A stretch of DNA of 64,000 bases from an uncultured Pedosphaera sp. (GTDB taxonomy: Bacteria > Verrucomicrobiota > Verrucomicrobiia > Limisphaerales > AAA164-E04): the NCBI GenBank assembly GCA_965214825.1, contig OZ243981.1:658567-722566 (forward strand), read 5' to 3'. A program made the translations under genes and the position numbers. This document shows, piece by piece, positions 3,093 through 58,210 of this stretch. Position 1 is the stretch's first letter. Each line of letters starts with the position of its first letter. The notes below the pieces were generated by a model. The model was not told the origin of the DNA. It saw only the letters and a program-made list of their open reading frames with translations, and did not search any database.

Positions 3093-4340
3093 TCATTTTT
3101 TGTAAATGAGGTAGCGTTTCCGGCGTTCTTTGAATTGTTGGGTTTCGGCTTCCCAACTTTTGGCGATGCGGGATACGGCACAGCCAGCTTGCAAATCTCG
3201 CCGTGTGGCGTCGGTGCCGTTGACTTTGTCAAACATCCCCCAATTTTTGCCGCGATTGAGGGCGGCTTGAAACAAGTCCCGGTCGCTGGCGTGTTTTATG
3301 GCGTCGAGCAGGTAGAAATTGACCGCGCTCAGGGGGGCGTTGGACGGATCGCGAAAGATGATTTCCACTGCTGGCATGGGACGCCCTTTTGAGCGGCCGC
3401 GCCGGGAAAGGATGGTGCCAGGGCGGAACAGGATTCCGGGCAAGGCCTGGCGGTTTAGGTAGGCGGCTGTTTGTGGCGCTTTCAGCCAGTCTTCCGCTAT
3501 GTATTCAAAGGGGCGTTCGGAGCCGATGCCGATGTCTAGCCCGCCGATTTCGCCTAGCATTCCGGTGGCCACTTGATACATTGGGGAGCGGCCGTGGGGA
3601 ACATTGGGGGAGGTGGGCGTCCATTTGAGCCCTGTGTCTTTCCACACCATGGACCGCCGCCAGCCTTTCATGGTGACCACTATCAGGTAGCAGGTGTGGT
3701 CGTTCATACGCTCGCCTTGAATCATGCGGGCCAGCTCGCCGCAAGTCATGCCATAGACATAGGGTATCGGCCAGTAACCGACCAGGGAACGGAATTGCGA
3801 ACGGTAGTGCGGGCCTTCCACTCTCAATCCTCCCAGAGGGTTGGGCCGGTCCAGCACCATGAAATCGACTCCCGCCTTGCCGCATTCTGCCATCGCAATG
3901 CCCATTGTGGCAATGAAGGTGTAGGAACGGGCGCCGGTGTCCTGAAGATCGTAAACCAGCACGTCGATATGTTGGAGCATCTTCGGCGTTGGCTTTCGGA
4001 CGGGACCGGGGCCGTAGAGAGAGAAGACGGGCAAGCCTGTCTTCGGATCGACGGCATCGGGAAACTCCTTTCCGGCCGGAATGTCGCCATAGACGCCGTG
4101 CTCCGCTCCGAACAACGCTACCAGGTTCACATTCGGCGCCCGGTGCAGCAGCTCAACCGTGGAGATGCCTGCTCGATTTGCGCCGCTGGGATTCGTCAAC
4201 AACCCGACACGCTTCCCCGCCAAATCCCGAAATCCCCGGGCGGCCAGCACATCACTCCCCAGTTTGACTTGCGCAGAGACGGGCGGAACCGCAACGGCAA
4301 GGCTCGGAAGGAGCGTCAAAACAGCAAAGCACCTTTTCAT
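3093..4340 (-). CDS. DUF1343 family protein (NamZ/YbbC-like exo-beta-N-acetylmuramidase family), secreted
   Basis: LLTNPSGANRAGISTVELLH..NLVALFGAEHGVYGD is typical of DUF1343. Signal peptide MKRCFAVLTLLPSLAVAVPPVSAQ. ATG at 4340 preferred over the longer ORF to 4439, which runs into the transposon end. TGA stop. Confidence 0.8.
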   Translation of the reverse strand: MKRCFAVLTLLPSLAVAVPPVSAQVKLGSDVLAARGFRDLAGKRVGLLTNPSGANRAGISTVELLHRAPNVNLVALFGAEHGVYGDIPAGKEFPDAVDPKTGLPVFSLYGPGPVRKPTPKMLQHIDVLVYDLQDTGARSYTFIATMGIAMAECGKAGVDFMVLDRPNPLGGLRVEGPHYRSQFRSLVGYWPIPYVYGMTCGELARMIQGERMNDHTCYLIVVTMKGWRRSMVWKDTGLKWTPTSPNVPHGRSPMYQVATGMLGEIGGLDIGIGSERPFEYIAEDWLKAPQTAAYLNRQALPGILFRPGTILSRRGRSKGRPMPAVEIIFRDPSNAPLSAVNFYLLDAIKHASDRDLFQAALNRGKNWGMFDKVNGTDATRRDLQAGCAVSRIAKSWEAETQQFKERRKRYLIYKK

Positions 4341-4427
4341 TTTCAGTATCGGCAACATTTCCCTTTCGCCCACATTCAGCTTTTGGCCAGTATTAACAGG
4401 CACCGCTCCCAGTGCAAGCCGAAGTTC

Positions 4428-4678
4428 CGCAATAAGCATTTATGGGCTTTGATGGTTTTGGAGGGCAATTTCGTTCGGGACATATAGATGGACAGGAGGC
4501 ACAGGATTGGATTTTTTGTCAAGGCGGGTGCCGGTCAACCGGTCGAGTGCCTGCACAAAGGCAGACAGGAAGTTGGTTGTCGGTTCCCTTCCGCCCTAAC
4601 CGCTCTTCGAGTCCCTCTGCCCTACCCACTCTTCGAGTGTCTGCGCCAACCCTCTTAAGCCTGTAACTCCTTATTGCG
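4428..4678. mobile_element. MITE-like terminal sub-element of unit A (251 bp, IR-bounded, no own duplication)
   Basis: CGCAATAAGCATTTATGGGCTT at 4428 and AAGCCTGTAACTCCTTATTGCG at 4657-4678. Its left 120 bp is the reverse complement of 46100-46232. Confidence 0.55.
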
Positions 4679-4690
4679 AAATCAAGCCTT

Positions 4691-4712
4691 GCGCAGACAG
4701 AAATGTCTGCGC
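4691..4712 (-). terminator. stem-loop just downstream of LRR gene A (GCGCAGACA-GAAA-TGTCTGCGC)
   Basis: Perfect 9-bp stem with a 4-nt loop, 6 nt after the TGA at 4718-4720. No clear U tract, so terminator function is tentative. Confidence 0.35.
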
Positions 4713-4717
4713 CACCT

Positions 4718-7700
4718 TCACTTCGCCGGTTTCAGGCGGAAGAACTCTGCGCCTTTCCGCTCAGGCGGAATCGGCAACACCCCCTCCCGCGAAAAACGAG
4801 ACGGCGACACGGCTTCCCACTCGCCCCTCAAATCAGTCGTGCTTTGCAATGTCCCTTCACGCCAATGAATCTGCACCCCCCCGCCCGCAATCCGCACAAT
4901 CTCCAAATGGTTGTTGTTGTTGAGAGACAAGCGCCTGAAGTTCGTCGAGCTGGCATCCGGCAAGGTCAAGGTGCCTATCGTTGGCTCGCAAAAGGTCACC
5001 TCCGATTTCGGGAAACCTTGCAGGTTGAGATTCTCAATGTCCATGCCTTCGGGCACACACAAACTCTCCAAAGGATTGCCGTTGAGAATCAACGTTTTCA
5101 AGCTCGTCAGGCCAGCGGGCAAGACCAGGTTGGTCAGGGAATTGTTGCTGAGGTCTAGCGTTATCAAGCTCGTCAAGTCCTCGGGCAAGGTCAGATGAGT
5201 CAGTTGGTTGTCGTTGAGATACAGCACCCACAAGTTCGTTAAACCGTGAGGCAAGGTCAAAGAGGTCAGTTGATTGTCGTTGAAATACAGCCCTCTCGAC
5301 TTGGCCAAGCCCTCCGGCAATGTCAGAGAGGGCAAGCGATTGTGATTGAGAAACAGCCACACCAAATTCGTCAAGCCATCGGGCAAAGTCAGGTGGGTCA
5401 AGTCATTGTTTCGGAGGTCTACAGACTTCGCGTTTGCATTCACCACCCGGTTAAAAGCACTGCCGTCGCTTGTCGTTCCGGTGATGAGGAGTGCTCCCTC
5501 AGTTATGGGCGGCTCTTCAGTTGTGTGTGGCTTTTCGGTTGTCGGAGGTTCTTCGGTTGTGGGAGGCTCTTCAGTTGGCGGGGGTTCTTCAGTTGTGGGC
5601 GGCGCAATCGTCTCTTCGTTCGCGGGATCGTAAAAGGTCACTGCTGATTTGGAATAGCCACGAAGCTCAAGACTTTCAAGGTCCAGGCCTTCGGGCGCCC
5701 GCACACTCTCCAAAGGATTGCCGAAGAGATACAGCCGTTGCAAGTTCGCCAAACCCTCCGGCAAGGTCAGGTTCGTCAGTTGATTATTAAAAAGATACAA
5801 GTGTTGCAAGTTCGTCAGACCCTCGGGCAAAGTTATAGAAGAGAGTTGATTGTCGAAGAGATGCAGCCGCTGCAAGTTCTCCAGGCCAGCGGGCACGGTA
5901 AGGGAAGAGAGTTGATTGTCGGCGAGAGACAGAGACTCCGTGCCTGTATCGACCTCCAAACGAAAAGTGTCGCCAGTGCTTGTCGTTCCGGTGAGGGTAA
6001 TGAATGTCCCAGTCGTGGGCGGAAGATTGGTATTCGTTGTCGGGGGCTCTTCGGTTGTGGGCGGTTCTTCGGTTGTTGGGGGTTCTTCGGTTGTGGGGGG
6101 TTCTTCGGTTGTCGGGGGGATATTGGTATTGGTTGTCGGCGGGATGTTGGTATTGGTCGTCGGTGGGATGTTGGTATTGGTCGTCGGTGGGATATTGGTA
6201 TTGGTTGTCGGGGATTCCCCGGTTGTGGGATCGTAAAAGGTCACTGCTGATGTCGAAAAACCTTGAAGATCGAGATTTTCAAGGTTCATGCCCAAAGGCA
6301 CACGCACACTTTCCAAAGGATTGCCGGAAAGATTCAGCGTTCTCAAGCTCGTCAGGCCAGTGGGCAAGGTCAGGTTGGTCAGGGAATTGTTGCTGAGGTC
6401 TAGCGTTCTCAAGCTCGTCAAGCCAGCGGGCAAGGTCAGGTGGGTCAGGGAATTGTTGCTGAGGTCTAGGGTTCTCAAGCTCGTCAAGTCGCCGGGCAAG
6501 GTCAGGTCAGTCAGTTGGTTGTTGTGGAGTTCCAGATATTGCAAGCTGGTCAAACCATCGGGCACGGTGAAGGCGGTCAGGTGGTTGTGGTCGAGATACA
6601 GCGTCTCCAAGTTGGTCAAGCCGGCAGGCAAGGTTACGGAAGCCAGATCAAAAAAGGAGTGGAGAGCCAGATGTGTCTCGTTGGCGGCGACTTCTTGGCT
6701 GAAGGCACTGCCGTTGCTTGTGGTTCCGGTGATGAGGAGAGTTGGGATCTCTGGTTCTGTCGGCTCTGTGGGCGGCGGCGTAATTGGCTCTTCGGGCGCG
6801 GGATCGTAGAAGGTAACCTCTAATTTCGGGAAGCCTTGCAGGTTGAGACTCTCAATGTCCATGCCCATCAGGCACACGCACACTCTCCAAAGGATTGCCG
6901 AAGAGATACAGCGTCTCCAATTTGGTCAAACCATCGGGCAGGGTCAAGGTAGTTAGTTGGTTGGAGTAGAGTTTCAGCTCCTGCAAGTTGGTCAAGGTAT
7001 CGGGCAGGGTCAAGGCGGTCAGGCGGTTGTAGCTGAGATTCAGCCTCGTCAAGTTGGTCAAGCCATCAGGCAGGGTCAGGTTGGTTAGTTGGTTGTCAGA
7101 GAGATACAGATTCGTCAAGTTGGTCAAGCCGGCAGGCAAGGTTAGGGAAGCCAGATTAAAGGAGTTGAGAGGCAGATATGTCGTGCTGGCATCGACTCGC
7201 CGGCTGTAGGCGCTGCCGTCGCTCTTGGTTCCGGTGATGGTGAGGGTTCCCTCAGTCGGGCGGGGGCTCTGTTTCGATTGTCTCTCCGGTCGTTGGATCG
7301 TAGAAGGTAACCTCTAATTTCGGGAAGCCTCCCAGGGCGAGACTCTCAATGTCCATGCCCAGAGGCACACGCAAACTCTCCAAAGGATTGTTGTCGACAT
7401 ACAGCCTCTCCAAGTTTGTCAAGGTATCGGGCACGGTGAAGGTGGTCAGTTGGTTGTTTTGGAGCCACAGCGTCGTCAAGCTGGTCAAGCCATCGGGCAG
7501 GGTCACGGAAGCCAGGTCAAGGGAGCTGAGAACCAGAGACGTCGTGCTGGCATTGACTTGTCGGCTGAAGGCGCTGCCGTCGGTTTTGGTTCCAGTGATG
7601 GTGAGGGTTCCCTCAGTTGGCGGGGGCTCTGTTTCGATTGTCTCTCCGGTCGTTGGATCGTAGAATGTGACCTCTAATTTCGGGAAGCCTGACAGGGAGA

Positions 7701-9171
7701 GACTCTCAATGTCCATGCCCAGAGGCACACGCAAACTCTCCAAAGGATTGTTGTTGAGCCGCAGATTCTCCAAGCTGGTCATGCCGACGGGCACGGTGAA
7801 GGAGGTCAGTTGGTTGTCGCCGAGCCTCAGATCCTCTAAGCTCGTCAAGTCATCGGGCAAGGTCAGGTTGGTTAGTTGGTTGCCGTAGAGATTCAGCGTC
7901 TTCAAGCTGGTCAAGCCATCGGGCAGGGTCAAGGTGGTCAAGCGGTTGTAGGAGAGATACAGAGTCTCCAAGCTGGGCAAGCTGTTAGGCAGGGTCAAGG
8001 TGGTCAGTTGGTTTTGGGAGAGATTCAGCGTCTTCAAGCTGGTCAAGCCATCGGGCAGGGTCAAGGGGGTCAGGCGGTTGTAGGAGAGATACAGAGTCTC
8101 CAAGCTGGTCAAGTCATCGGGCAAGGTCAGGTTGGTTAGTTGATTGTCGTGGAGATTCAGATTCGTCAAGCTGGTCAAGCCGGCAGGCAAGGTTAGGGAA
8201 GCCAGATTAAAGGAGTTGAGAGCCAGAGATGTCGTGTTGGCAGCATTGACTCGCCGGCTATAGGCGCTGCCGTCGGTTTTGGTTCCAGTGATGGTGAGGG
8301 TTCCCTCAGTTGGCGGGGGCTCTGTTTCGATTGTCTCTCCGGTCGTTGGATCGTAGAAGGTCACTTCTGATTTCGGGAAGCCTGTCAGGTTGAGACTCTC
8401 AATGTCCATGCCCAGAGGCACACGCAAACTCTCCAAAGGATTGTTGTTGAGCCGCAGATTCTCCAAGCTGGTCATGCCGACGGGCACGGTGAAGGAGGTC
8501 AGTTGGTTGTCGCCGAGCCTCAGATCCTCTAAGCTCGTCAAGTCATCGGGCAAGGTCAGGTTGGTTAGTTGGTTGCCGTAGAGATTCAGCGTCTTCAAGC
8601 TGGTCAAGCCATCGGGCAGGGTCAAGGTGGTCAAGCGGTTGTAGGAGAGATACAGAGTCTCCAAGCTGGGCAAGCTGTTAGGCAGGGTCAAGGCGGTCAG
8701 TTGGTTTTGGGAGAGATTCAGCGTCTTCAAGCTGGTCAAGCCATCGGGCAGGGTCAAGGGGGTCAGGCGGTTGTAGGAGAGATACAGAGTCTCCAAGCTG
8801 GGCAAGTCATCGGGCAAGGTCAGGTTGGTTAGTTGATTGTCGTGGAGATTCAGATTCGTCAAGCTGGTCAAGCCGGCAGGCAAGGTTAGGGAAGCTAGAT
8901 TAAAGGAGTTGAGAGCCAGAGATGTTGTGCTAGCATTGACTTGTCGGCTGAAGACGCTGCCGTCGGTTTTAGTTCCGGTGATGGTGAGGGTTTGAGCGGC
9001 GGCTGGGAGGGCAAGGGCAAGAGCGAGGGCTAGCGCCAAGCCGATTCGATGCGGCGATGTTGGCCTATTTTTGATGGGTTGCGGTTTGGCGGTTTTGTTG
9101 GCGGCGGTTGCCGCCAATTTCAAGAAGATAACGGATAATAGTTTCATAACTGCAGTGTTTTTCAGTTTCAT
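4718..9171 (-). pseudogene. giant modular leucine-rich-repeat secreted protein, paralogue A (about 1483 aa if repaired), split into three ORFs by two +1 frameshifts
   Basis: The ORFs are 7252..9333 (start taken as ATG 9171, matching MKLKDTAAMK of paralogue B), 6852..7139 and 4718..6883. N-terminal 60 aa and C-terminal about 120 aa are near-identical to the 46298..51790 protein. Breaks are at about 7255 (PPPD* where sister modules read PPPTEGTLTITG) and about 6868 (VPDGHGH* where sister modules read VPLGMDIESL). Confidence 0.75.
7611..8996. repeat. two near-identical 693-bp tandem copies (231-aa LRR super-module) inside LRR gene A
   Basis: cctcagttgg occurs at 7611 and 8304 (offset 693). Shadow ORFs 7876..8139 and 8569..8832 translate identically. 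Confidence 0.85.
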
Positions 9172-9621
9172 TATGGCGGTGCTTTGCTTAGCACAATTTT
9201 CCCCATTATCAAGCATTTTGCCCGCAATAAACGTTTGTAGGCTTGATGAGTTTTTCGGAGTGGTGGCGGAACTCGCCTTGCGCATCAACTTGCCCTGATG
9301 GACGAGTCGCCGGATTGCCCATCTTCCATCCAAGATTCTTCAACGATTCTTCAATGTAAGGATAGAAGCGATATTCACTATCCCGCGCCCGGCTCTTCCG
9401 TTTAGGCGATATGAAGGCAGGAGTACTGGCTGGTAGGCTGGTGGGCTGGCCTTTTTTTCATGATGACAGGTTGTTTCGCTTTTTCAAAGGTTATTTTTAA
9501 TTTTCGGTTCAGCTCGGGACACAGGCTTGCCGCCTGCAGGCAGACAGGATGTCTGCCTCACATTTTTCTCCCGACAAGGGAGATTTAGCACAGGATTGGA
9601 TTTTTTGTCAAGGGGAGATGG

Positions 9622-9772
9622 CGAAATAAGTATTTACAGGCTTTGGAGGTTTTGGAGAGAGGATTGATGGCGATTCAGCTGGGGCTGCCGAAAGCCAAGG
9701 GATGCGGCGGGCGGCGGTCAACGGGTCGAGTGCCTGCGCGTCACCCTGTTAAGCCCGTAAATGCTTATCGCG
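9622..9772. mobile_element. MITE-like terminal sub-element of unit A (151 bp)
   Basis: CGAAATAAGTATTTACAGGCTT at 9622-9643 and AAGCCCGTAAATGCTTATCGCG at 9751-9772. Internal sequence is related to 46056-46232 but rearranged. Confidence 0.5.
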
Positions 9773-9805
9773 CGAAGTTCGCTCAAACGCCGGCGCCAAA
9801 TCCGC

Positions 9806-10837
9806 TCATAATCGGCCGGACGCTCTTTTCAACCGATCCCAAATGCCCTCCCACGCCGCGCCTTCGGGGGGAGACTCGACGAGAATTAGTTCACAGCCGG
9901 CAGCGTCGCAAGCATGAAGCTCGGCAAACAAAGCGCGCGCATATCCTTCGGCATCGCGAGGCGCCGTCGAAACACGCGCAAACCCAGCCGCTGCCGGAAT
10001 CACATTGCGGGCGACGATGCTGATGGCGCTCCGAGCTTGCCCTGTTCGCCGCACAATCTGTTCAAACGCGGCCCGGTCTGCCCATCGTTTGACAATCAGT
10101 TGCGCTTTCGGCGCATAGTGCCGCGCTGCCATTCCCGGACTTCGGGCAATTGCCGCGCCACCCGATTTTCCCGCCGTGCTTTTCTTTTCGACTAGGACGC
10201 CGGCGGCTTGAAGCGCAGCCATATGCACCATTCCCGGACGCAGAACTCTCGCTGGTCGGTTCACCAAATCAACCACTGTGGACTCGATGCCGACCGCCGC
10301 GTCGCCGCCGTCCACCACCAATGGGATGGCCCCGTTCAGTTGCACCAAAACATGCTCAGCCCGGGTCGGAGACAACTCGTTCGAGCGGTTGGCGCTCGGC
10401 GCCGCCAACGGAAACCCGCACTTTTGAATCACAGCCTGCATGAATGGATGACGGGGCCAACGCACAGCCACCGTATCGCCACCCGCTGTAATCTCGTCGG
10501 GAATCAACGCCGCCCGCCGCACCACCAACGTCAACGGCCCCGGCCAAAAAGATTGAGCCAGCCGCGCCGCCGCCTCATCCCATTCCCGAACACACCGTTG
10601 AAGCATCGCCCAACCGACAACATGTACAATCAAAGGATTGCTTTGCGGCCGCCCCTTGACCGCATAAATGCGGCGGACGGATTCCGGCGCCAAGGCATTC
10701 CCCGCCAAACCATAAACGGTCTCCGTCGGCAGCGCCGCCACTTCGCCCGCCAGCAGGATTTCAGAGGCCTTTCTAGTGGCTTGTTCAAAATCCGCTTTCG
10801 ATTGCGCCGAAAGAACCTGGGTGGCGAATCTGTTCAT
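9806..10837 (-). CDS. L-threonylcarbamoyladenylate synthase (Sua5/YwlC/TsaC family, long form)
   Basis: ALPTETVYGLAGNALAPESVRRIYAVKGRPQSNPLIVHV matches the YrdC domain, followed by a Sua5-type C-terminal domain. TGA stop. Confidence 0.88.
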   Translation of the reverse strand: MNRFATQVLSAQSKADFEQATRKASEILLAGEVAALPTETVYGLAGNALAPESVRRIYAVKGRPQSNPLIVHVVGWAMLQRCVREWDEAAARLAQSFWPGPLTLVVRRAALIPDEITAGGDTVAVRWPRHPFMQAVIQKCGFPLAAPSANRSNELSPTRAEHVLVQLNGAIPLVVDGGDAAVGIESTVVDLVNRPARVLRPGMVHMAALQAAGVLVEKKSTAGKSGGAAIARSPGMAARHYAPKAQLIVKRWADRAAFEQIVRRTGQARSAISIVARNVIPAAAGFARVSTAPRDAEGYARALFAELHACDAAGCELILVESPPEGAAWEGIWDRLKRASGRL

Positions 10838-10886
10838 TGACGGTTTAAACTTTCCGCATCAGACTAGGTGCTGCTACGCTTCCGCC

Positions 10887-11921
10887 ATGCTCACTTCTCT
10901 GACGGCGCAACTCAAACAATCCCGCAACCTTTCCCCGGAACAAGTCGCTGAGGCCACCGAGCTTCTCTTCTCCGGCGACATCGCCCCGCCACTCAAAGCG
11001 GAGTTCATGACCGCCTTGGCTCAAAAAGGGGAAACCATCGACGAAATTGCCGCGTTTGCCAAGATTCTGCGCAGCCAAGCCGTTCGCATCCCCCTCTCAG
11101 CCGAATGCCACCGCCGGGAAATTCTGGACGTTTGCGGCACTGGCGGCGACCACCAGAACACCTTCAACATCTCGACCACAGCGGCCATCATCGCCGCCGC
11201 TGCCGGCGCAACAGTGGCTAAACACGGCAACCGAGCGGTTACTTCCCAATCCGGCAGCGCCGATGTTTTGGAAGCTCTGGGCATCCCTATCGACCTCGAC
11301 CCGGAAGTAAGTGCCGCCGCTCTCGAAGAACACGGTTTCGCCTTCTTCTTCGCCCCCAAATGCCACCCCGCATTCAAAAACATTGCCCCGGCCAGAAAAC
11401 TCTGCGCCGAACAAGGGCAACGCACCATTTTCAACTTCCTCGGCCCCCTACTCAACCCAGCCGGCCCCACCGCCCAACTCATCGGCGTGCCCACCCCTAA
11501 CCTCTGCAAACCCATCGCCAAAGCGCTCCAATCCATCGGCATCAGACGGGGCATGGTTGTCTCCGGCAGCGCCGGCGTCAGTTACTTGGATGAATTATCG
11601 ACTCTCGGCACTAACACAATCGCTGAATTTTACCAAGACCGGGGTTTCAGCATCGGCGAACTCGACACCCAAAACCTGCCTGTTCAAGCCGCCCGGCTCA
11701 ATGACCTCAGAGGAGGCAGCAGCAAAACCAACGCCCGGATCATCCGGGACATCCTCGACGGCAAAGACCGAGGCCCCAAACGAGACATTGTCTTGCTCAA
11801 CGCCGGCGCCGCCCTCTTCGTCGCCGGAAAGAGCCGAGCACTCAACGAAGGCTGGGACTTGGCCGCCCGTCTGCTCGACGAGGGAACCGCCGCCGACAAA
11901 CTTGCCAGCCTCAGCAGATGA
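10887..11921 (+). CDS. trpD: anthranilate phosphoribosyltransferase
   Basis: ILDVCGTGGDHQNTFNISTTAAIIAAAAGATVAKHGNRAVTSQSGSADVLEALGI. ATG at 10887 chosen, since the longer ORF from 10776 overlaps the divergent gene. Confidence 0.9.
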   Translation: MLTSLTAQLKQSRNLSPEQVAEATELLFSGDIAPPLKAEFMTALAQKGETIDEIAAFAKILRSQAVRIPLSAECHRREILDVCGTGGDHQNTFNISTTAAIIAAAAGATVAKHGNRAVTSQSGSADVLEALGIPIDLDPEVSAAALEEHGFAFFFAPKCHPAFKNIAPARKLCAEQGQRTIFNFLGPLLNPAGPTAQLIGVPTPNLCKPIAKALQSIGIRRGMVVSGSAGVSYLDELSTLGTNTIAEFYQDRGFSIGELDTQNLPVQAARLNDLRGGSSKTNARIIRDILDGKDRGPKRDIVLLNAGAALFVAGKSRALNEGWDLAARLLDEGTAADKLASLSR

Positions 11922-17694: not shown

Positions 17695-17815
17695 AACGCG
17701 TAATTTTACCAAGCAAACCGCAACTTTGACAAGCAGCAACTCCGCAATAACCTTCTTAGGGCTTGATACGGTGCGCGCAGGCTGTCCCTGTGCATTCGTT
17801 GGCGATGTCTCCGTC

Positions 17816-18794
17816 CGCAATAACCTTCTTAGGGCTTGATACGGTGCGCAGATGAACTTAATCAAAGTCTTTGAACGCTTTCCCGACCAGCAATCCTGCT
17901 TTGACTATTTGGAGACCGTCCGCTGGCACGGCAAACCCCAATGCCCCCTCTGCAACAGCCATGATGTCGCCAAAAAGAAGGATAAAAACCGCATTGGCCG
18001 GTGGAATTGCCATGCTTGTAAGAGCAGTTTCAATGTCCTTTCCGGCACCATTTTTCAGGGCACACGCATCCCTCTGCAAAAATGGTTTCTGGCCATTGCT
18101 CTCATCCTCAATGCCAAGAAAAGCCTTTCCAGCTGGCAACTCTCCCGCGATTTGGAGATGAACCAGCCCTCGGCGTGGTATCTGCAAGTGCGGGTGCGCC
18201 TGGCAATGGGGCAGATGCGCAGCAAGAAACTCTTGCGGGGGATTGTCGAGGCCGACGAAACCTTTATCGGAGGGCGCCCCCGCAAACCGAACAAACATTT
18301 CGAAAATCGTCCGCCCAGAGACAAATATACCGACAAAACACCGGTGATTGGAGCAGTCGAACGGGGTGGCCAAGTCAGAGCCCAAGTCAAACACCCGCCC
18401 GGGACGCCTTTGCGCACCAACATTCGGCACCTGATGGCCACTTGGCTGCACAAAAAACGGACTCGCCTGATGACGGATGAAGCCAGGGAGTTCCACAACA
18501 TTGACGCCATTGGCGTGGAACACAAAGTCGTGCGCCATGCCGTTCGCTACGCGCTGGGGGATGTCCCCACCAACACGATTGAAGGGTTTTGGTCTCTGCT
18601 CAAACGCGCTTGGTATGGCAGCCACCATCATTAATTCCAAGGAAGACATGCAGCTCGACCTCTCCGAAGCCACTTGGAAATACAATTACCGCCACAATCC
18701 CAACGCCTTCAGCGCCTTCATCACCGGCTGCTTTAACGATTGACCGACCACCAAAAAAACTCAAAACCCCAAAAGCCTGTAAATAGTTATTGCG
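17816..18794 (+). mobile_element. IS1595-family element, copy 1 (degenerate; extra left IR at 17743-17778)
   Basis: Left end is CGCAATAACCTTCTTAGGGCTT (17816). Right end is AAGCCTGTAAATAGTTATTGCG (ends at 18794). The 36-bp block tccgcaataaccttcttagggcttgatacggtgcgc is present twice (17741 and 17814). No flanking 8-bp duplication. Confidence 0.8.
17852..18743 (+). pseudogene. IS1595-family (ISXO2-like DDE) transposase with a 1-nt insertion frameshift
   Basis: About 93% identical to the intact 296-aa copy at 55943..56833. It reads HHH* (taa at 18632-18634) where copy 2 reads HHHYSKEDMQ. The tail SKEDMQLDLSEATWKYNYRHNPNAFSAFITGCFND continues in the +1 frame. Confidence 0.8.
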
Positions 18795-46006: not shown

Positions 46007-46055
46007 CCCGGCAGCGACGCCCTTTCCCGCTGCGGGAAAAGTGGAGAAATTCTTT

Positions 46056-46232
46056 CGCAAAAAGCATTTACGGGCTTAACAGGGTGACGCGCAGGCACAT
46101 GTGGCGCAGGCACTTGACCGGTTGACCGGCACCTGCCTTGACAAAAAATCCAATCCTGTGCCTCCTGCAAATCTATATGTCCCGAACTAAATCGCCCTCC
46201 ATAACCATTAAAGCCCATAAATGCTTATTGCG
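46056..46232. mobile_element. MITE-like terminal sub-element of unit B (177 bp)
   Basis: CGCAAAAAGCATTTACGGGCTT at 46056 and AAGCCCATAAATGCTTATTGCG at 46211-46232. Its right 120 bp is the reverse complement of 4428-4550. Confidence 0.55.
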
Positions 46233-46297
46233 AAAAAAACTGTGGACAAAACACCGCCGAACCGTTAAGACAAACCCGCAACAGAAAACCGCCAATA

Positions 46298-49200
46298 ATG
46301 AAACTGAAAGACACTGCAGCTATGAAACCATTATCCGTTATCCTCTCGAAACTGGTGGCAACCGCCGCCAACAAAACCGCCAAACCGCAACCCATCAAAA
46401 ACAGGCCAACATCGCCGCATCGAATCGGCTTGGCTTTGGCCCTCGCCCTCACCCTCCCAGCCGCCGCCCAAACCCTCACCATCACCGGAACCAAAACCGA
46501 CGGCAGCGCCTTCAGCCGGCAAGTCAATCCCAACACGACATCTCTGGATCTCAGATATCTTAACCTGGTTTCCCTAACCCTGCCCGATGGCTTGACCAGC
46601 TTGCAGAGGCTGGATCTCTACAAAAACCTCCTGACCACCTTGACCCTGCCCGATGGCTTGACCAGCTTGACGAGGCTGGATATCCGCCACAACCGCCTAA
46701 CCACCTTGACCCTGCCCGATGGCTTGGCAAACTTGCAGGGTCTGGGTCTCAGCCACAACCGACTGAGCACCTTGACCCTGCCCGATGGCTTGGCAAACTT
46801 GCAGGACCTGTCTCTCCACAACAACCGCCTAACCACCTTGACCCTGCCCGATGGCTTGGCAAACTTGCAGAGTCTGAGTCTCGGCGACAACCGACTGAGC
46901 ACCTTGACCCTGCCCGATGACTTGACCAACTTGGAGGACCTGAGTCTCCCCCGCAACCGCCTAACCGCCTTGACCCTGCCCGACAGCTTGACCAACTTGC
47001 AGGGTCTGTATCTCCGCGACAACCAACTGACCTCCCTGACCTTGCCCGTCGGCCTGGATAGCTTGAAGGATCTTGAACTCTGGGGCAATCCTTTGGAGAG
47101 TTTGCGTATGCCTCTGGGCATGGACATTGAATTTCTCGATCTTCAAGGCTTCCCGAAATCCGAGGTTACATTCTATGACCCGGCAACCGAGAAACCTCCT
47201 GCCCTCACGGGAACCCACAGTGACGGCAGCGATTTCCGCCGGGAAGTCGCCACCAGCGCCGCCTCTCTAAATCTTGCCGACAATGGCTTGACCAGCTTAA
47301 CTTTGCCGGACGGTTTGGCAAATTTGCAGGAGCTGAATCTCGCCGACAATGGCCTGACGAGTCTGGCCTTGCCGGAGGACTTAACGAGCTTGCAGGAGCT
47401 GGTTCTTTTCAACAACCAACTGACCAACCTGACTTTGCCGGAGAATTCGGCGAACCTGCGGGAGTTGTATCTCGCCGACAATGGCTTGACCGCTCTGAAC
47501 CTGCCAGAGGGTTTGGCAAACTTGCGGACGCTGGTTCTCAAAGACAACCAACTGACCAATCTGACCTTGCCCGAAGGGTTGACAAACTTGCGAGTGCTGG
47601 TTCTCAACGACAATCCTTTGGAGAGTGTGCGGGTGCCTCAAGGATTGGACATTGAAAATATCCTTCTCGTTGGTTTCCCAAAATCAGAAGTGACCTTCTA
47701 CGATCCCGCGACCGGAGAAATGATTGCGCCGCCGCCAACCGGAGAACCGCCCACGACTGGGACATTCATTACCCTCACCGGAACGACAAGCGCTGGCAGC
47801 GATTTTCGTTTGGAGGTCGATGCCGACACGGAGTTTTTGTCTCTCTCCGACAATCTACTGATTTCCCTCACCGTGCCCAATGGCCTAGAGAACTTGCAGC
47901 AGCTGCACCTCTTCGACAATCAACTCTCTTTCATAACTTTGCCCGATGGTTTGACGAACTTGCAGCACCTGTATCTCTTTGGCAATCAACTAACTAACTT
48001 GGCCTTGCCGGAGGGCTTGGAAAATTTGCAGCGGCTGTATCTCTTCGACAATCAGTTGACCAATCTGACCTTGCCCGAGGGTTTAATGAACTTGCGAGTG
48101 CTGGTTCTCAACGACAATCCTTTGGAGAGTGTGCGGGCGCCTCAAGGATTGGACATTGAAAATATCCTTCTCGTTGGTTTCTCCAAATCAGAAGTGACCT
48201 TCTACGATCCCGCGACCGGAGAGACGATTGCGCCGCCGCCAACCGGCCAAACTCTGACGGTCACCGGTGCCATAAGCGGCGGCAAGCCTTTCAGCCGGCA
48301 GGTTCCTGCCGACGCAGAGTCTCTCTCTCTCGACAACAATCAACTGACCTCCTTGATCTTGCCTAGCGGCTTGGAGAACTTGAAGTCTCTCTACCTCTCC
48401 AAAAATCGCTTCACTTCCTTGACCTTACCCGCCGACTTAAAGAACCTGCAGACTTTGTTTCTCTACGACAATCCTTTGGAGAGTTTGCATATACCGCTAG
48501 ACATGGATATTGAAAATCTTGTGCTTGGAGGTTTCCCAAAATCAGAAGTGACCTTCTACGATCCCGCGACCGGAGAGACGATTGCGCCGCCGCCAACCGG
48601 AGAACCGCCCACGACTGGGACATTCATTACCCTCACCGGGACGACAAGCGCTGGCAGCGATTTTCGTTTGGAGGTCGATGCCGACACGGAGTTTTTGTCT
48701 CTCTCCGACAATCTACTGACTTCCCTCACCGTGCCCGCTGGCCTGGAGAACTTGCAGCGGTTGCACCTCTTCGACAATCAACTCTCTTTCATAACTTTGC
48801 CCGATGGTTTGACGAACTTGCAGCATCTGTATCTCTTTGGCAATCAACTGACTAACTTGGCCTTGCCGGAGGGCCTGGAAGATTTGCAGCGGCTGTATCT
48901 CTTCGACAATCAGTTGACCAATCTGACTTTGCCCGAGGGTTTAATGAACTTGCGAGTGCTGGTTCTCTACGACAATCCTTTGGAGAGTTTGCATATACCG
49001 CTAGACATGGACATTGAAAATATTCTTCTCGTTGGTTTCCCAAAATCAGAAGTGACCTTCTACGATCCCGCGACTGGAGAGACGATTGCGCCGCCGCCAA
49101 CCGGCCAAACTCTGACGGTCACTGGTGCCATAAGCGGCGGCAAGCCTTTCAGCCGGCGGGTTCCTGCCGACGCAGAGTCTCTCTCTCTCGACAACAATCA

Positions 49201-51790
49201 ACTGACCTCCTTGACCTTGCCTAGCGGCTTGGAGAACTTGAAGTCTCTCTACCTCTCCAAAAATCGCTTCACTTCCTTGACCTTACCCGCCGACTTAAAG
49301 AACCTGCAGACTTTGTTTCTCTACGACAATCCTTTGGAGAGTTTGCATATACCGCTAGACATGGATATTGCAAATCTTGTGCTTGGAGGTTTCCCAAAAT
49401 CAGAAGTGACCTTCTATGATCCCGCGACCGGAGAGACGATTGCACCGCCGCCAACCGGAGAACCGCCCACGACTGGGACATTCATTACCCTCACCGGAAC
49501 GACAAGCGCTGGCAGCGATTTTCGTTTGGAGATCGATGCCGACACGGAGTTTTTGTCTCTCTCTGACAATCTACTGACTTCCCTCACCGTGCCCGCTGGC
49601 CTGGAGAACTTGCAGCGGCTGCACCTCTTCGACAATCAACTCTCTTTCATAACTTTGCCCGATGGTTTGACGAACTTGCAGCATCTGTATCTCTTTGGCA
49701 ATCAACTGACTAACTTGGCCTTGCCGGAGGGCCTGGAAGATTTGCAGCGGCTGTATCTTTTCGACAATCAGTTGACCAATCTGACCTTGCCCGAGGGTTT
49801 AATGAACTTGCGAGTGCTGGTTCTCAACGACAATCCTTTGGAGAGTGTGCGGGCGCCTCAAGGATTGGACATTGAAAATATCCTTCTCGTTGGTTTCCCA
49901 AAATCAGAAGTGACCTTCTACGACCCGGCGACTGGAGAGACGATTGCGCCGCCACCCACAGAACCCACAGAGCCAGCAGAGCCCATGGAACCATCAGAGC
50001 CCACGGAGCCAACAGAACCAGAACCGCCAATTGAGGAAACTGTCCTCATCACCGGAACGACAAGCGCCGGCAGCGCTTTTAGACGGGAGGTTACTGCAAA
50101 GGTGACGTCTTTGGGTCTCTCCGGCAATGACCTGACTTCTGTAATCTTGCCCGAAGGCTTGGAGAAATTACAGCGGTTGGGTCTCTACCACAACCGCCTG
50201 ACAGCCTTTACCTTGCCTAACAGCTTGATTAGCTTGCAGTCTCTGGGTCTCTGGAACAATCGCCTGACTACCTTCACCCTACCCAATACCTTAACCAACT
50301 TGCAGGAGCTACATCTCGGCAACAATCAGCTGACCGCCTTTGCCCTGCCCCATACCTTGACCAACTTGACGAGTCTGAATCTCTTCGGCAATCAGCTGAC
50401 CGCTTTCACCTTGCCTGACAGCTTAACCAACTTGACGAATCTGAGTCTCTGGAACAATCAGCTGACCGCCTTCGCCCTGTCCCATACCTTGACCAACTTG
50501 ACGAGTCTGGATCTCTTCGGCAATCAGCTGACCGCCTTCACCTTGCCTGACAGCTTGACTAACTTGACGAATCTGAGTCTCTGGAACAATCGCCTAACCA
50601 CCTTCACTCTGCCCCATACCTTGACCAACTTGACGAGTCTGGATCTCTACAATAATCAACTAACTAATATGACCTTGCCCGTCGGCTTGGAGAATTTGGA
50701 GACGCTGCGGCTCGACGGCAATCAACTGACCTCCCTGATTTTACCCACCAGCCTGGAGAACTTAGAGAGGCTGGATCTCCGCAGCAATCAACTGACTAAT
50801 TTGACCTTGCCCGCCGGCTTGGAGAATTTGGAGACGCTGGATCTCCGCGGTAATCCTTTGGAGAGTGTGCGTGTGCCTCTGGGCATGAACCTTGAATTTC
50901 TCCCTCTTCAAGGTTTCCCAAAATCAGAAGTGACCTTCTACGATCCCGCGACCGGAGAGACGATTGCACCGCCGTCCACAGAGCCGATAGAACCAGAACC
51001 GCCAACTGAGGAAACTCTCCTCATCACCGGGACGACAAGCGACGGCAGCGCTTTTAGACGGGAGGTCGACGCCGACACAGAGTCTCTGCCCCTCTCCAGA
51101 AATCAGTTGACCAATCTGACTTTGCCCGCCGGCTTGACCAGCTTGAGGTCATTGTATCTTGCCAACAATCAACTCACATCCCTGATTTTGCCAAACGACT
51201 TGACCAGCTTGGAGACGCTGTATCTCAGCTACAACCGCCTGAATGCCTTCTCCGTGCCCAATACCTTAACCAACTTGAGGACGTTGAATATCGGCGGCAA
51301 TCGTCTGGCTTCGCTGACTTTGCCCACAGGCTTGACCAACTTGAGAACACTGACTCTCAACAACAATTCCCTGACCCACCTGGCCTTGCCCGCTGGCCTG
51401 ACGAGCTTGCGCTCGCTGGTTCTCAACGGCAATCCTTTGGAGAGTTTGTGTGTGCCCGAAGGCATGGACATTGAGAGTCTCAACCTGCAAGGTTTCCCGA
51501 AATCGGCGGTGACCTTTTGTGAGCCAACGATGGGCACCTTGACCTTGCCGGAAGCCAGCTCGGCGAACTTCAGGCGCTTGTCACTCGACAACAACAACCC
51601 TTTGGAGATTGTGCGGATTGCGGGGGGCGGGGTGCAGATTCTTTGGCAGGGAGGGACATTGCAAAGCACGACTGATTTGAGGGGCGAGTGGGAAGCCGTG
51701 GCGCCGTCTCGTTTTTCTCGGGAGGGGGTGTTGTCGATTCCGCCTAAGCGGAAAGGCGCAGAGTTCTTCCGCCTGAAACCGGCGAAGTAA
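46298..51790 (+). CDS. giant modular leucine-rich-repeat secreted protein, paralogue B (1830 aa, intact)
   Basis: Long leader ending ALALALTLPAAAQ. There are nine modules. Each has a TITGT.SDGS beta-rich head, 4-10 LRRs of 22-24 aa (L..L.L..N.LT.LTLP.GL.NL), a cap NPLESLRVPLGMDIE.L.L.GFPKSEVTFYDP and a Pro/Thr/Glu linker. A unique C-terminal domain ends in AEFFRLKPAK. TAA stop. Confidence 0.85.
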   Translation: MKLKDTAAMKPLSVILSKLVATAANKTAKPQPIKNRPTSPHRIGLALALALTLPAAAQTLTITGTKTDGSAFSRQVNPNTTSLDLRYLNLVSLTLPDGLTSLQRLDLYKNLLTTLTLPDGLTSLTRLDIRHNRLTTLTLPDGLANLQGLGLSHNRLSTLTLPDGLANLQDLSLHNNRLTTLTLPDGLANLQSLSLGDNRLSTLTLPDDLTNLEDLSLPRNRLTALTLPDSLTNLQGLYLRDNQLTSLTLPVGLDSLKDLELWGNPLESLRMPLGMDIEFLDLQGFPKSEVTFYDPATEKPPALTGTHSDGSDFRREVATSAASLNLADNGLTSLTLPDGLANLQELNLADNGLTSLALPEDLTSLQELVLFNNQLTNLTLPENSANLRELYLADNGLTALNLPEGLANLRTLVLKDNQLTNLTLPEGLTNLRVLVLNDNPLESVRVPQGLDIENILLVGFPKSEVTFYDPATGEMIAPPPTGEPPTTGTFITLTGTTSAGSDFRLEVDADTEFLSLSDNLLISLTVPNGLENLQQLHLFDNQLSFITLPDGLTNLQHLYLFGNQLTNLALPEGLENLQRLYLFDNQLTNLTLPEGLMNLRVLVLNDNPLESVRAPQGLDIENILLVGFSKSEVTFYDPATGETIAPPPTGQTLTVTGAISGGKPFSRQVPADAESLSLDNNQLTSLILPSGLENLKSLYLSKNRFTSLTLPADLKNLQTLFLYDNPLESLHIPLDMDIENLVLGGFPKSEVTFYDPATGETIAPPPTGEPPTTGTFITLTGTTSAGSDFRLEVDADTEFLSLSDNLLTSLTVPAGLENLQRLHLFDNQLSFITLPDGLTNLQHLYLFGNQLTNLALPEGLEDLQRLYLFDNQLTNLTLPEGLMNLRVLVLYDNPLESLHIPLDMDIENILLVGFPKSEVTFYDPATGETIAPPPTGQTLTVTGAISGGKPFSRRVPADAESLSLDNNQLTSLTLPSGLENLKSLYLSKNRFTSLTLPADLKNLQTLFLYDNPLESLHIPLDMDIANLVLGGFPKSEVTFYDPATGETIAPPPTGEPPTTGTFITLTGTTSAGSDFRLEIDADTEFLSLSDNLLTSLTVPAGLENLQRLHLFDNQLSFITLPDGLTNLQHLYLFGNQLTNLALPEGLEDLQRLYLFDNQLTNLTLPEGLMNLRVLVLNDNPLESVRAPQGLDIENILLVGFPKSEVTFYDPATGETIAPPPTEPTEPAEPMEPSEPTEPTEPEPPIEETVLITGTTSAGSAFRREVTAKVTSLGLSGNDLTSVILPEGLEKLQRLGLYHNRLTAFTLPNSLISLQSLGLWNNRLTTFTLPNTLTNLQELHLGNNQLTAFALPHTLTNLTSLNLFGNQLTAFTLPDSLTNLTNLSLWNNQLTAFALSHTLTNLTSLDLFGNQLTAFTLPDSLTNLTNLSLWNNRLTTFTLPHTLTNLTSLDLYNNQLTNMTLPVGLENLETLRLDGNQLTSLILPTSLENLERLDLRSNQLTNLTLPAGLENLETLDLRGNPLESVRVPLGMNLEFLPLQGFPKSEVTFYDPATGETIAPPSTEPIEPEPPTEETLLITGTTSDGSAFRREVDADTESLPLSRNQLTNLTLPAGLTSLRSLYLANNQLTSLILPNDLTSLETLYLSYNRLNAFSVPNTLTNLRTLNIGGNRLASLTLPTGLTNLRTLTLNNNSLTHLALPAGLTSLRSLVLNGNPLESLCVPEGMDIESLNLQGFPKSAVTFCEPTMGTLTLPEASSANFRRLSLDNNNPLEIVRIAGGGVQILWQGGTLQSTTDLRGEWEAVAPSRFSREGVLSIPPKRKGAEFFRLKPAK
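47690..49960. repeat. about 2.6 near-identical 858-bp tandem copies (286-aa double module) inside LRR gene B
   Basis: ggagaaccgcccacgactggg occurs at 47741, 48599 and 49457 (offset 858 each). Shadow ORFs 47698, 48556 and 49414 translate almost identically. Confidence 0.85.
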
Positions 51791-51987
51791 AAGTGAGGCA
51801 GACACTCGAAGAGCAGTTAGGGCGGAGGGGAACCGACATCCAACTTCCTGTCTGCCCGACCTTTATGCTGGACAAGGTGAAAAAGCCAGTAACTGCTTGT
51901 TGCGAATTCTTTTGTTGACATTCTTGAAAAAGGAGAGTACACTTTTCCTAAATTGTTTTTAGACCCAATTAAACAGTGGAGTAGATT

Positions 51988-52687
51988 ATGTTCTCAAGAT
52001 GGTTGATTGTTGTTGGGATTGCGGTGGGGATGGCGGGCTTCCATTGGGAAGCGACAGCGCAGTTGGTAGTGTTCAGCTTTAATGATGCGGCCAGGGATGA
52101 GACTTCGTTCAGTCCGGATTCTCAGACAGCGAACGGCTTGGCCGGCAACATGACGCGCGGTTCCGGGCTAATCGCAACCAAGGCAGGCGGCACCTTCAGC
52201 GCAAAAGGATGGTCAACCGAGGGCATCGACCTGAATAACTATTACAGTTTTTCCTTCGGCGCCAGCTCTGGCTTTCAAGCAGCCTTATCCTCATTGGAGT
52301 TGAGCGGACGGCGTTCGGGAACCGGCATCCGCAATTGGTCGGTCCGCAGCAGCCTAGACAATTTCTCCTCCGATCTGTCCCCCTCGCCCTTCTCAGTGTG
52401 CTCAACAACACAGACACTCACTCGGGGCAGGTTCCCTTCAGCAGCGAGAGTTTTTCCGGCCTAACAAGAGATCAGTGGAATTTCGGATTTACGACTACAA
52501 TGCGGAAGCGAGTTCCGGAACATGGCGCATCGACAATGTGAAACTCGCCGGCCAAATTACTGTGGTTCCCGAACCTGCCGGGTGTTTGGTTGGGGGGAAC
52601 ATGGTGCTGCTTGCATTGGGATTTTGTTGGTATCGCCGCCGGCATCGTCAAGGTCGCCCGAACACTGTCGGGGAAGCTGCCCTCTGA
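51988..52687 (+). pseudogene. PEP-CTERM sorting-domain protein, split over three frames
   Basis: Frame 1 has a signal peptide, then SFNDAA..LTRGSGL..GWSTEG..NWSVRSSLDNFSSDL. Frame 3 has LSVLNNTDTHSGQVPFSSESFSGLT. Frame 2 has VEFRIYDYNAEASSGTWRIDNVKLAGQITVVPEPAGCLVGGNMVLLALGFCWYRRRHR, which is VPEP, a TM segment and a basic tail. Confidence 0.65.
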
Positions 52688-55891: not shown

Positions 55892-56888
55892 CGCAATAAC
55901 AATTTAAGGGCTTTTGGGGTTTTGAGTTTTTATGGTGGTCGGTCAATCGTTAAAGCAGCCGGTGATGAAGGCGCTGAATGGATTGGGATTGTTGCGGTAA
56001 TTGTATTTCCAAGTGGCTTCGGAGAGATAAAGCTGCATGTCTTCTTTGGAATAATGGTGATGACTGCCATACCAAGCGCGTTTGAGCAGAGACCAAAACC
56101 CTTCAATCGTGTTGGTGTGGACATCCCCCAGCGCGTAGCGAACGGCATGGCGCACGACTTCGTGTTCCACGCCAATGGCGTCAATGTTGTGGAACTCCCT
56201 GGCTTCATCCGTCATCAGGCGAGTCCGTTTTTTGTGCAGCCAAGTGGCCATCAGGTGCCTAATGTTGGTGCGCAAAGGCGTCCCGGGCGGGTGTTTGACT
56301 TGGGCTCTGACTTGGCCACCCCGTTCCACCGCGCCAATCACCGGTGTTTTGTCGGAATATTTGTCTCTGGGCGGACGATTTTCGAAATGTTTGTTCGGTT
56401 TGCGTGGTCGCCCTCCGATAAAGGTTTCGTCGGCCTCGACAATCCCCCGCAAGAGTTTCTTGCTGCGCATCTGCCCCATCGCCAGGCGCACCCGCACTTG
56501 CAGATACCACGCCGATGGCTGGGTCATCTCCAAATCGCGGGAGAGTTGCCAGCTGGAAAGGCTTTTCTTGGCGTTGAGGATGAGGGCAATGGCCAAGAAC
56601 CATTTTTGGAGGGGGATTTTGGTTTTCTGGAAGATGGTGCCGGAAAGGACGTTGAAACTGCTCTTGCAAGCATGGCAATTCCACCGGCCAATGCGGTTTT
56701 TGTCCTTCTTTTTGGCGACATCATGGCTGTTGCAGAGGGGGCACTGGGGTTTGCCGTGCCAGCGGACGGCTTCCAAGTAGTCGAAGCAGGCTTGCTGGTC
56801 AGGAAAGCGTTCAAAGACTTTGATTAAGTTCATCCGCGCACCTTACCAAGCCCTCGAAATCTTGTCAAGCCCTTAAATTGTTATTGCG
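55892..56888 (-). mobile_element. IS1595-family insertion sequence, copy 2 (997 bp, intact)
   Basis: Perfect 22-bp IRs CGCAATAACAATTTAAGGGCTT at 55892-55913 and 56867-56888. The 8-bp duplication CATATCTT is at 55884-55891 and 56889-56896. Contains a single 296-aa transposase ORF. Confidence 0.9.
55943..56833 (-). CDS. IS1595-family transposase (N-terminal zinc ribbon plus ISXO2-like DDE domain)
   Basis: CPLCNSH..WNCHACKSSF is the zinc ribbon. GIVEADETFIGGRPRK, RLMTDEAREF and TNTIEGFWSLLKRAWYGSHHHYS are typical of IS1595/ISXO2-like transposases. Confidence 0.9.
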   Translation of the reverse strand: MNLIKVFERFPDQQACFDYLEAVRWHGKPQCPLCNSHDVAKKKDKNRIGRWNCHACKSSFNVLSGTIFQKTKIPLQKWFLAIALILNAKKSLSSWQLSRDLEMTQPSAWYLQVRVRLAMGQMRSKKLLRGIVEADETFIGGRPRKPNKHFENRPPRDKYSDKTPVIGAVERGGQVRAQVKHPPGTPLRTNIRHLMATWLHKKRTRLMTDEAREFHNIDAIGVEHEVVRHAVRYALGDVHTNTIEGFWSLLKRAWYGSHHHYSKEDMQLYLSEATWKYNYRNNPNPFSAFITGCFND

Positions 56889-58089: not shown

Positions 58090-58210
58090 CGCAATAAGCA
58101 GTTACTGGCTTTTTTCGCCTTGTCCAGCATAAAGGTCGGGCAGACATTCTTGTCTGCCCGCAGGCTGAAAGCCTGCGCTACTCCCGCTAAGCCTATAAAT
58201 GCTTATTGCG
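58090..58210. mobile_element. 121-bp MITE with IS1595-type IRs and an 8-bp target-site duplication
   Basis: CGCAATAAGCAGTTACTGGCTT is at 58090-58111 and AAGCCTATAAATGCTTATTGCG at 58189-58210. GAAAAGTC is at 58082-58089 and 58211-58218. The left 56 bp is the reverse complement of 51849-51904. Confidence 0.8.

Follow-up and report, generated by a model that had tools for sequence, protein, structure and literature searches.

The DNA analysed here, referred to as the window, is a stretch of 64,000 nucleotides (64 kb) of contig OZ243981.1 from an uncultured Pedosphaera sp. of the Verrucomicrobiota. In it, the spacer between a Sua5-type gene and the gene for NamZ (the former DUF1343) is occupied by a unit of 5,345 bp at 4428-9772, which we call unit A and which carries, as its cargo, a gene for a giant leucine-rich repeat (LRR) protein between ends of the type that bound insertion sequences (ISs) of the IS1595 family. 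Read directly, the left terminal repeat is CGCAATAAGCATTTATGGGCTT (4428-4449) and the right one, on the minus strand, is CGCGATAAGCATTTACGGGCTT (9751-9772), the two agreeing at 20 of 22 positions. Immediately outside them stand two copies of the octamer CGAAGTTC, one at 4420-4427 and the other at 9773-9780, where the Sua5 stop codon lies 25 bp upstream. The octamer occurs three times in the 64 kb, and identity between the two flanks is limited to its 8 bp, with none beyond. An earlier sequence-only reading of this DNA, which had proposed the inverted repeats and their identical 8-nt flanks, is borne out on both counts, and the possibility it had raised against itself, that the octamers might belong to a longer duplicated flank, proved unfounded. 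The pre-insertion (empty) site of unit A can be reconstructed as AGTGCAAGCCGAAGTTCGCTCAAACGCCGG.

LRR gene A runs on the minus strand from an ATG at 9171 to a stop at 4718 (4718-9171, 4.45 kb) and begins with a signal-peptide-like N-terminus. That a 4.45-kb LRR gene forms the cargo had been recognised from the outset, but the gene is not one open reading frame (ORF). The frame that starts at 9171 closes at a stop at 7252-7254 after 639 codons, beyond which the LRR sequence follows a second frame as far as 6854 and a third as far as 4720, with two +1 insertions relative to sister repeats, near 7258 and near 6868. The former changes GCC-AAC to GCCCGAC, lengthening a short C run, and could be a sequencing error. 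The latter, from CCT-CTGGGC to CCTGATGGGC, combines an indel with a substitution (CT to GAT), involves no homopolymer slip and looks real. Judged from these frames, LRR gene A is probably a real pseudogene. Tandem repeats of 18 bp and 24 bp within it (5484-5620, 6011-6226) encode Pro/Thr/Glu-rich linkers between LRR modules, mucin-like spacers that probably vary in length between copies.

Another unit of this kind, unit B, lies on the plus strand at 46056-51904 (5,849 bp), between a gene for an AcrB-type transporter and a 158-aa ORF. It has a duplication of its own, AATTCTTT, whose left copy (46048-46055) is 41 bp past the stop of the AcrB-type gene and whose right copy (51905-51912) matches it at 8 of 8 positions; the empty site reconstructed for unit B is GTGGAGAAATTCTTTTGTTGACATTC. 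The cargo, LRR gene B (46298-51790, plus strand), is an intact paralogue of gene A and encodes 1830 aa. Both units sit in short intergenic spacers, with no gene disrupted and the flanking genes intact, and conceptual excision leaves spacers of 112 bp at the site of unit A and 124 bp at that of unit B. The G+C content of the units (0.53-0.54) equals that of the window and is uninformative on a foreign origin. A sigma-70-like match (TTGACA-17-TACACT, 10 of 12 positions) at 51915-51943 starts 3 bp past the right duplication of unit B, which would thus have inserted directly upstream of what is presumably the promoter of the following gene (51988-52464), leaving it undisrupted. A terminator at this insertion site was considered and dropped, a scan having given no support for it.

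Both LRR proteins look secreted and are modular in build, with a beta-rich cap (TLTITGTK.DGS), runs of 22-aa LRRs (66-bp period), another cap (NPLESL.VP.GMDIESL.L.GFPK) and Pro/Thr/Glu linkers. The cargo matches LRR_4, LRR_5 (BspA type) and LRR_8 in Pfam; its NCBIfam matches, to internalins and LRR adhesins, are all far under the cut-offs. Such an architecture suggests an adhesin-like surface protein. When LRR protein B was used as a database query, the matches were all to generic LRR proteins, 20-50% identical over parts of the protein, and no further copies of the unit were recruited from outside the window.

Set side by side in gene orientation, units A and B align colinearly, at roughly 81% identity, with 81% DNA identity in the 5' part (A 9180-8455 versus B 46288-47008) and 82% in the 3' part (A 5516-4704 versus B 50995-51804). 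The likeness goes on into the flanks, which derive from MITEs (miniature inverted-repeat transposable elements) and which we call the head and the tail. Aligned from the tip of the repeat (9772) inward, the heads are identical at 31 of 33 positions and then share a block, GCGCAGGCAC..GACC.GTTGACC, followed by a core; their inner terminal repeats (A 9244-9223, B 46211-46232) agree at 18 of 22 positions and are followed by a leader of 50-65 bp and the ATG. Downstream of both LRR genes comes a segment, ACTCGAAGAGC.GTTAGGGCGGA.GGGAACCGACA.CCAACTTCCTGTCTGCC, that is 94% identical and ends in a terminal repeat. Just outside the outer repeats, identity is at background, with 9/28 positions matching beside the head and about 7/28 beside the tail, beyond TTGCG. 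Because the homology includes the MITE-derived flanks and ends precisely at the tips of the outer repeats, A and B are, on this comparison, two diverged copies of one ancestral repeat-bounded MITE-gene-MITE unit, placed at unrelated sites.

Anatomy of the flanks

The head of unit A is a MITE of 550 bp (9223-9772, minus strand), homologous to the 177-bp head MITE of unit B (46056-46232, plus strand, both terminal repeats present) but enlarged by two insertions. From the outside inward it comprises the outer repeat (9751-9772) within an outer arm (9709-9772), a conserved core at 9588-9613 that is identical to unit B at 26 of 26 positions (CCTTGACAAAAAATCCAATCCTGTGC), and a degenerate inner repeat (9223-9244), beyond which lies the leader of LRR gene A (9172-9222, minus strand). 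Insertion 1 (9614-9708, 95 bp) brings a repeat-like end at 9622-9643, and it is this extra end that made 9622-9772 appear as a self-contained MITE of 151 bp. The sequence-only reading had described both termini of the unit, 4428-4678 and 9622-9772, as short MITE-like pieces. Each is indeed bounded by inverted repeats, but comparison with unit B reveals that 9622-9772 is only the outer part of the 550-bp head MITE.

Insertion 2 (about 9245-9587, roughly 340 bp) is unique, with no other copy in the window or on ctg142491l, a metagenome contig described below. It contains, on the plus strand, a pair of terminator-like hairpins (9435-9452 and 9538-9558) and, on the minus strand, an open frame (..YPYIEESLKNLGWKMGNPATRPSGQV..) that leads into the start of the LRR gene; the 56 codons in its downstream part (9339-9172), taken without the N-terminal part of the YPYIEESLKNLGWKMGNPATRPSGQV peptide, had no match in Pfam.

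The tail MITE of unit A (4428-4678, minus strand, 251 bp) shares the orientation of the head MITE. Its outer 131 bp (4428-4558) share 92% identity with unit B's head MITE, and the tail MITE also holds a 26-bp tandem duplication and a long-loop hairpin (4562-4640). Comparison of subterminal sequences assigns ends of the type GGGCTTAACAGGGTGACGCGCAGG to the transposase-start side of the IS copies and those of the type GGGCTTTGATGGTTTTGGAGGG to the transposase-stop side. By this measure the outer repeat of the tail (4428-4449) is of the stop-side type and its degenerate inner repeat (4657-4678) of the start-side type. The outer ends of unit A thus have the polarity of an IS, start-side at 9772 and stop-side at 4428, and, being of two different types, they offer a transposase a normal left-end/right-end pair.

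In unit B the picture differs at the tail (51791-51904, plus strand, terminal repeat at 51883-51904). Unit A has a complete MITE at both ends, whereas in unit B only the head is complete and the tail consists of a hairpin segment and one terminal repeat, without the inner repeat present in the tail of unit A. Between the hairpin segment (51804-51854) and A 4612-4562 the identity is 94%. The outer 56 bp, terminal repeat included, are instead 96-97% identical to the end of another MITE in the window, at 58090-58210, a match which indicates that an end exchange occurred in the tail of unit B.

Two kinds of short motif recur in these flanks. A sigma-70-like sequence, TTGACC-16-AAAAAT, lies in the head MITE of unit B (46122-46149, plus strand) and points into the LRR gene, as a match to the consensus only; the same motif points out towards NamZ from the tail MITE of unit A (4538-4511, minus strand), and insertion 1 (95 bp) interrupts it in unit A's head MITE. 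The palindrome GCAGACA-N3-4-TGTCTGC occurs four times in the window against 0.01 expected, at 4693-4710 (as GCAGACA-N4-TGTCTGC, just past the stop codon of LRR gene A), 9540-9556, 58140-58157 and 59555-59571. Three copies are in MITE-derived DNA and the one at 59555 is outside it; long-loop versions are present in the tails of unit A (4562-4640) and unit B (51797-51856). The palindrome may be a module of the repetitive extragenic palindrome (REP) type, or a terminator, acquired by the MITEs.

IS1595-family elements in the window

Across the 64 kb we listed all end-like sequences with no more than five mismatches, and paired opposed ends lying at most 12 kb apart. This gave 17 pairs, five of which have identical outside flanks (8/8) where 0.00026 would be expected by chance: unit A, unit B, an IS at 55892-56888, and two MITEs, at 58090-58210 and 62531-62681. 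The inner ends of unit A (4657-4678, 9223-9244 and 9622-9643) have no duplications of their own, and the inner end pairs of units A and B match at only 1-3 of 8 flank positions. The MITEs therefore did not reach these sites separately. The bare inner ends point to a MITE-gene-MITE composite as the ancestral form, in line with the proposal of the sequence-only reading.

The IS (minus strand, 997 bp) is an intact member of the IS1595 family, with ends, CGCAATAACAATTTAAGGGCTT, that match at 22 of 22 positions and an 8-bp duplication, CATATCTT; its likeness to the ends of unit A had been noted in the sequence-only reading and holds. Its transposase (55943-56833, 296 aa) has a DDE_Tnp_IS1595 domain and an N-terminal zinc ribbon (Pfam PF12762, 1.6e-30, and PF12760, 1.3e-08), scores 155.7 bits against a cut-off of 75 with NCBIfam NF033547, and is 55-59% identical to its closest proteins in the public collection. 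The ends of unit A match those of this resident IS at 19 of 22 positions and have subterminal motifs in common with both of them, and the IS is a candidate source, in trans, of transposase for the units. The two MITEs each have a perfect duplication, GAAAAGTC for that at 58090-58210 (121 bp), one end of which matches the outer end of the unit B tail, and AAAACCCG for that at 62531-62681 (151 bp).

Another copy of the IS, at 17816-18794, encodes a transposase 97% identical to the intact one, frameshifted and interrupted at 18631-18636. Its 73-bp left end is tandemly duplicated (17743-17815, then from 17816 onward), and no 8-bp duplication flanks it (AGCAACTC or TCTCCGTC versus AACTCGAG). The copy, taken as 17743-18794, is probably decayed or rearranged.

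Outside the window, an independent 31-kb metagenome contig (ENA ERZ25070786, ctg142491l) holds a 99.9% identical IS at 1046-2042 with a different duplication, TCTTAAAC, a canonical, uninterrupted 152-bp head-type MITE without duplication at 754-905, and a further MITE at about 6111-6262 with a 7/8 duplication (CCGAAGTT/CCCAAGTT), next to which a gene encodes an RCC1-repeat protein more than 2000 aa long. This contig is from an organism identical or very close to that of the window. An IS identical to 99.9% at another site, together with the canonical MITE, suggests that this family of ISs and MITEs has been active recently. In viral contigs, searches for the MITE core and the terminal-repeat pattern gave no match.

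Neither unit contains a transposase of its own. With the IS transposase as query, tblastn found the two IS copies only and nothing inside units A or B; nine internal ORFs, antisense ones included, had no Pfam match at E<=0.1; and Rfam gave no match in the units. The claim that the interior of unit A is devoid of a transposase, which a hidden one would have overturned, withstood these searches. A transposase together with a passenger gene inside one pair of ends, the arrangement that defines a transporter IS, is thus absent from 4428-9772 and from 46056-51904.

Proposed transposition and its alternatives

We consider it likely that unit A is a non-autonomous, IS1595-derived unit made of a MITE, an LRR gene and a MITE, and that it was inserted whole, through an 8-bp staggered cut, by an IS1595-family transposase supplied from elsewhere. 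The near-identity of its terminal repeats, the perfect match of its flanks and the length of that match, equal to the duplication made by the resident IS, together support transposition, and 8-bp direct repeats are reported for elements of the IS1595 family (PMC12561309). For such a unit the terms MITE-bounded composite transposon and mobile insertion cassette (MIC) are equivalent.

In an ancestor, two MITEs would have come to flank a resident LRR gene, and a promoter borne by a MITE may drive the cargo. A DDE transposase, supplied in trans by the IS at 55892-56888 or by a closer relative elsewhere in the genome, would recognise the outermost ends, and the whole 5,345 bp would then be inserted elsewhere through the staggered cut characteristic of the family, in this instance into a Sua5/NamZ spacer of about 110 bp. 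That a transposase acting in trans made the move is our inference, and the presence of two copies at different sites supports it indirectly. As a sister copy with a perfect duplication of its own, unit B testifies independently to movement of the unit as a whole, and it partly stands in for a test by means of an empty site. The proposal of the sequence-only reading, a non-autonomous MITE-bounded unit inserted whole between the Sua5 and DUF1343 (NamZ) genes, is accordingly not only supported but strengthened by unit B.

The most serious alternative, although we regard it as rather improbable, is that the gene and one MITE were looped out as a circle between the direct MITEs of a donor and recombined into a MITE already resident at CGAAGTTC, with the duplication taken over from that MITE. 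The MITEs of head and tail do lie in direct orientation, pseudo-compound transposons and circular forms have been reported for the IS1595 family (PMC12561309), and the outer arm of the head (9709-9772) together with the outer body of the tail (4428-4558) reconstitutes one canonical MITE of about 150 bp, like the one at 754-905 of ctg142491l. Unit B, however, is asymmetric, with a head that is a complete MITE of one subtype and a tail that is the end of another, lacking the inner repeat, and no simple crossover yields that. The outer head arms of A and B, by their 31/33 identity and the subterminal block, also resemble each other more closely than any of the window's other MITE ends, as if the arm travels with the gene, and MITEs so short (120-250 bp) and so diverged (8-25%) are poor substrates for recombination.

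Several observations do not sit easily with insertion of the whole unit by a transposase, the reconstitution of a canonical MITE from the two outer parts being one of them. The tails of A and B differ over their outer 60-130 bp, that of B matching another MITE subfamily, so that at least one end was exchanged after the two copies split. A and B are about 19% different, yet both duplications are perfect, which needs moves younger than the A/B split, or luck. The broken state of gene A means that the cargo is not currently maintained in unit A. The ends of the resident IS differ from those of the unit at 3 of 22 positions, and cross-recognition by its transposase is only presumed. Finally, no empty site was obtained among relatives, whose Sua5 proteins are at most 69% identical, and the insertion was thus not directly observed.

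The remaining explanations fare worse than the circle. That A and B arose by segmental duplication, or from misassembly across repeats, might be suspected from the highly repetitive nature of the LRR genes and from a contig that appears to derive from metagenome assembly. Yet the homology ends at the tips of the terminal repeats with unrelated sequence beyond, the two copies have distinct, perfect 8-bp duplications, a feature created by neither process, and the flanking genes are intact, with spacers of ordinary length after conceptual excision; we hold this origin to be very unlikely. Even less credible is the independent insertion of two MITEs around a resident LRR gene, with octamers that match by coincidence or because a longer flank was duplicated. 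The window does hold MITEs of this family in some number, but each should then have its own duplication, and none has; a chance 8/8 match has a probability of 1.5e-5 per pair and yet is seen at both A and B; the identity of the flanks ends at 8 bp; and the same arrangement of gene and flanks recurs at a second locus. An autonomous unit, with a transposase or other recombinase hidden in one of several 100-170-aa ORFs that run antisense to the LRR gene, has next to no likelihood in view of the negative tblastn, Pfam and Rfam searches, these ORFs lying in repeat DNA and being probably artefacts. Coincidence, segmental duplication, misassembly and a hidden transposase can each be regarded as effectively excluded.

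Related systems and the insertion site

As defined previously (PMC3129680, PMC4337579), a MIC carries passenger genes between IS-derived repeats, has no transposase, is flanked by a duplication of the length usual for its family and is presumed to be mobilised in trans. Examples are MIC231 of Bacillus cereus and the Xanthomonas MICs that carry transcription activator-like effector (TALE) genes between TnXax1 (Tn3-family) repeats with 5-bp duplications (PMC4337579). Units A and B display every feature of a MIC that can be read from a sequence, namely IS-related inverted repeats, no transposase, an unrelated passenger gene and an 8-bp duplication of the length made by the cognate IS; mobilisation in trans is presumed for them as it is for MICs. 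In their cargo they come closest to the Xanthomonas cassettes, which likewise carry a large tandem-repeat protein gene and exist in several diverged copies. Unlike the known MICs, the units have ends derived from IS1595 (8-bp duplication) and not from IS231/IS4 or Tn3 (5 bp), each of their ends began as a whole MITE and not as a bare repeat, the host is an uncultured member of the Verrucomicrobiota, the cargo is an LRR surface protein, and the units are known from sequence alone.

Composite-like structures flanked by MITEs have been described in Acinetobacter, where 439-bp MITEs surround class 1 integrons and a pair of MITE-297 surrounds a 76-kb mer region (PMC6382973). There, too, two non-autonomous miniature elements bracket unrelated DNA in a manner comparable to a compound transposon. 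Those structures carry plasmid-borne resistance integrons or operons, whereas here the cargo is a single chromosomal repeat-protein gene of 4.5-5.5 kb, present twice in the same genome as diverged copies, both of them with a perfect duplication. Within the IS1595 family itself, the compound transposon Tn7560 is formed by ISApl4 (PMC12561309), and members with passenger genes, the transporter ISs, are attributed to Siguier et al. 2009 as cited in PMC3129680 and PMC12888890. Units A and B have in common with these the transposase family, the 8-bp duplications and the association with a passenger gene, but transporter ISs and Tn7560 hold at least one transposase gene and the units hold none.

The unit therefore belongs to a kind already described, a MIC or MITE-bounded composite, and represents no new kind of element and no new principle. 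The sequence-only reading, which knew of no described MITE-bounded unit with a giant repeat-protein gene, overstated the novelty, since both transposase-less cassettes with large repeat-protein genes (PMC4337579) and MITE-flanked composites (PMC6382973) are on record. A limited literature search found no published IS1595-derived cassette with an LRR gene, nor any in the Verrucomicrobiota.

The value of the locus lies in a clean, well-delimited example, with two copies in one window, that is useful for annotation: standard annotation would list two "hypothetical LRR proteins" and miss the mobile unit. It indicates that MITE-type ends of the IS1595 family can capture and re-insert a surface-protein gene of 4.5-5.5 kb in uncultured Verrucomicrobiota, so that some paralogous giant repeat-protein genes may arise by transposition and not by segmental duplication. 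The units provide defined ends for the study of trans-mobilisation by an IS1595-family transposase, in a family whose mechanism has been little studied, and one intact and one decaying copy make up a small natural experiment on the fate of the cargo. More speculatively, and we hold this to be unlikely, there might exist a family of IS1595-derived cassettes whose speciality is to spread copies of giant LRR surface-protein genes within, and perhaps among, the genomes of this Verrucomicrobiota lineage, with the head MITE serving as promoter of the cargo. Transposition and not tandem duplication would then drive the expansion and turnover of the surface-protein repertoire, and the cassettes would be the counterpart, in a free-living bacterium, of the TALE-gene cassettes of Xanthomonas.

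As for the insertion site, look-ups of the exact Sua5 and NamZ proteins returned no record outside the source genome. Scans of genome and metagenome contigs with Sua5 gave relatives at 51-55% identity with no NamZ downstream. A larger protein search placed the window's own Sua5 on a 3.83-Mb contig, from which the window derives, and the nearest other Sua5 proteins, at 65-69% identity (maximum 69%), were from Verrucomicrobia subdivision 3 and Pedosphaera-type metagenome genomes. In two complete relatives (Sua5 68% identical), compared over the 9030-11900 region, the upstream order of TrpD-like, GFO_IDH_MocA and ApbE genes is kept, and downstream of Sua5 the sequence is variable, with NamZ absent there and only small unannotated ORFs in place. 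The region directly downstream of Sua5, different in the window and in both relatives, looks like a local hotspot of variability.

On the other side of unit A, the longest ORF for NamZ (3093-4439, minus strand) starts with an ATG at 4439 that falls within the terminal repeat of the unit. The native start of NamZ is likely the ATG at 4340 (MKRCFAVLTLLPSLAVA.., signal-peptide-like), and gene callers could yield a chimeric N-terminus for NamZ that reads out of the transposon end.

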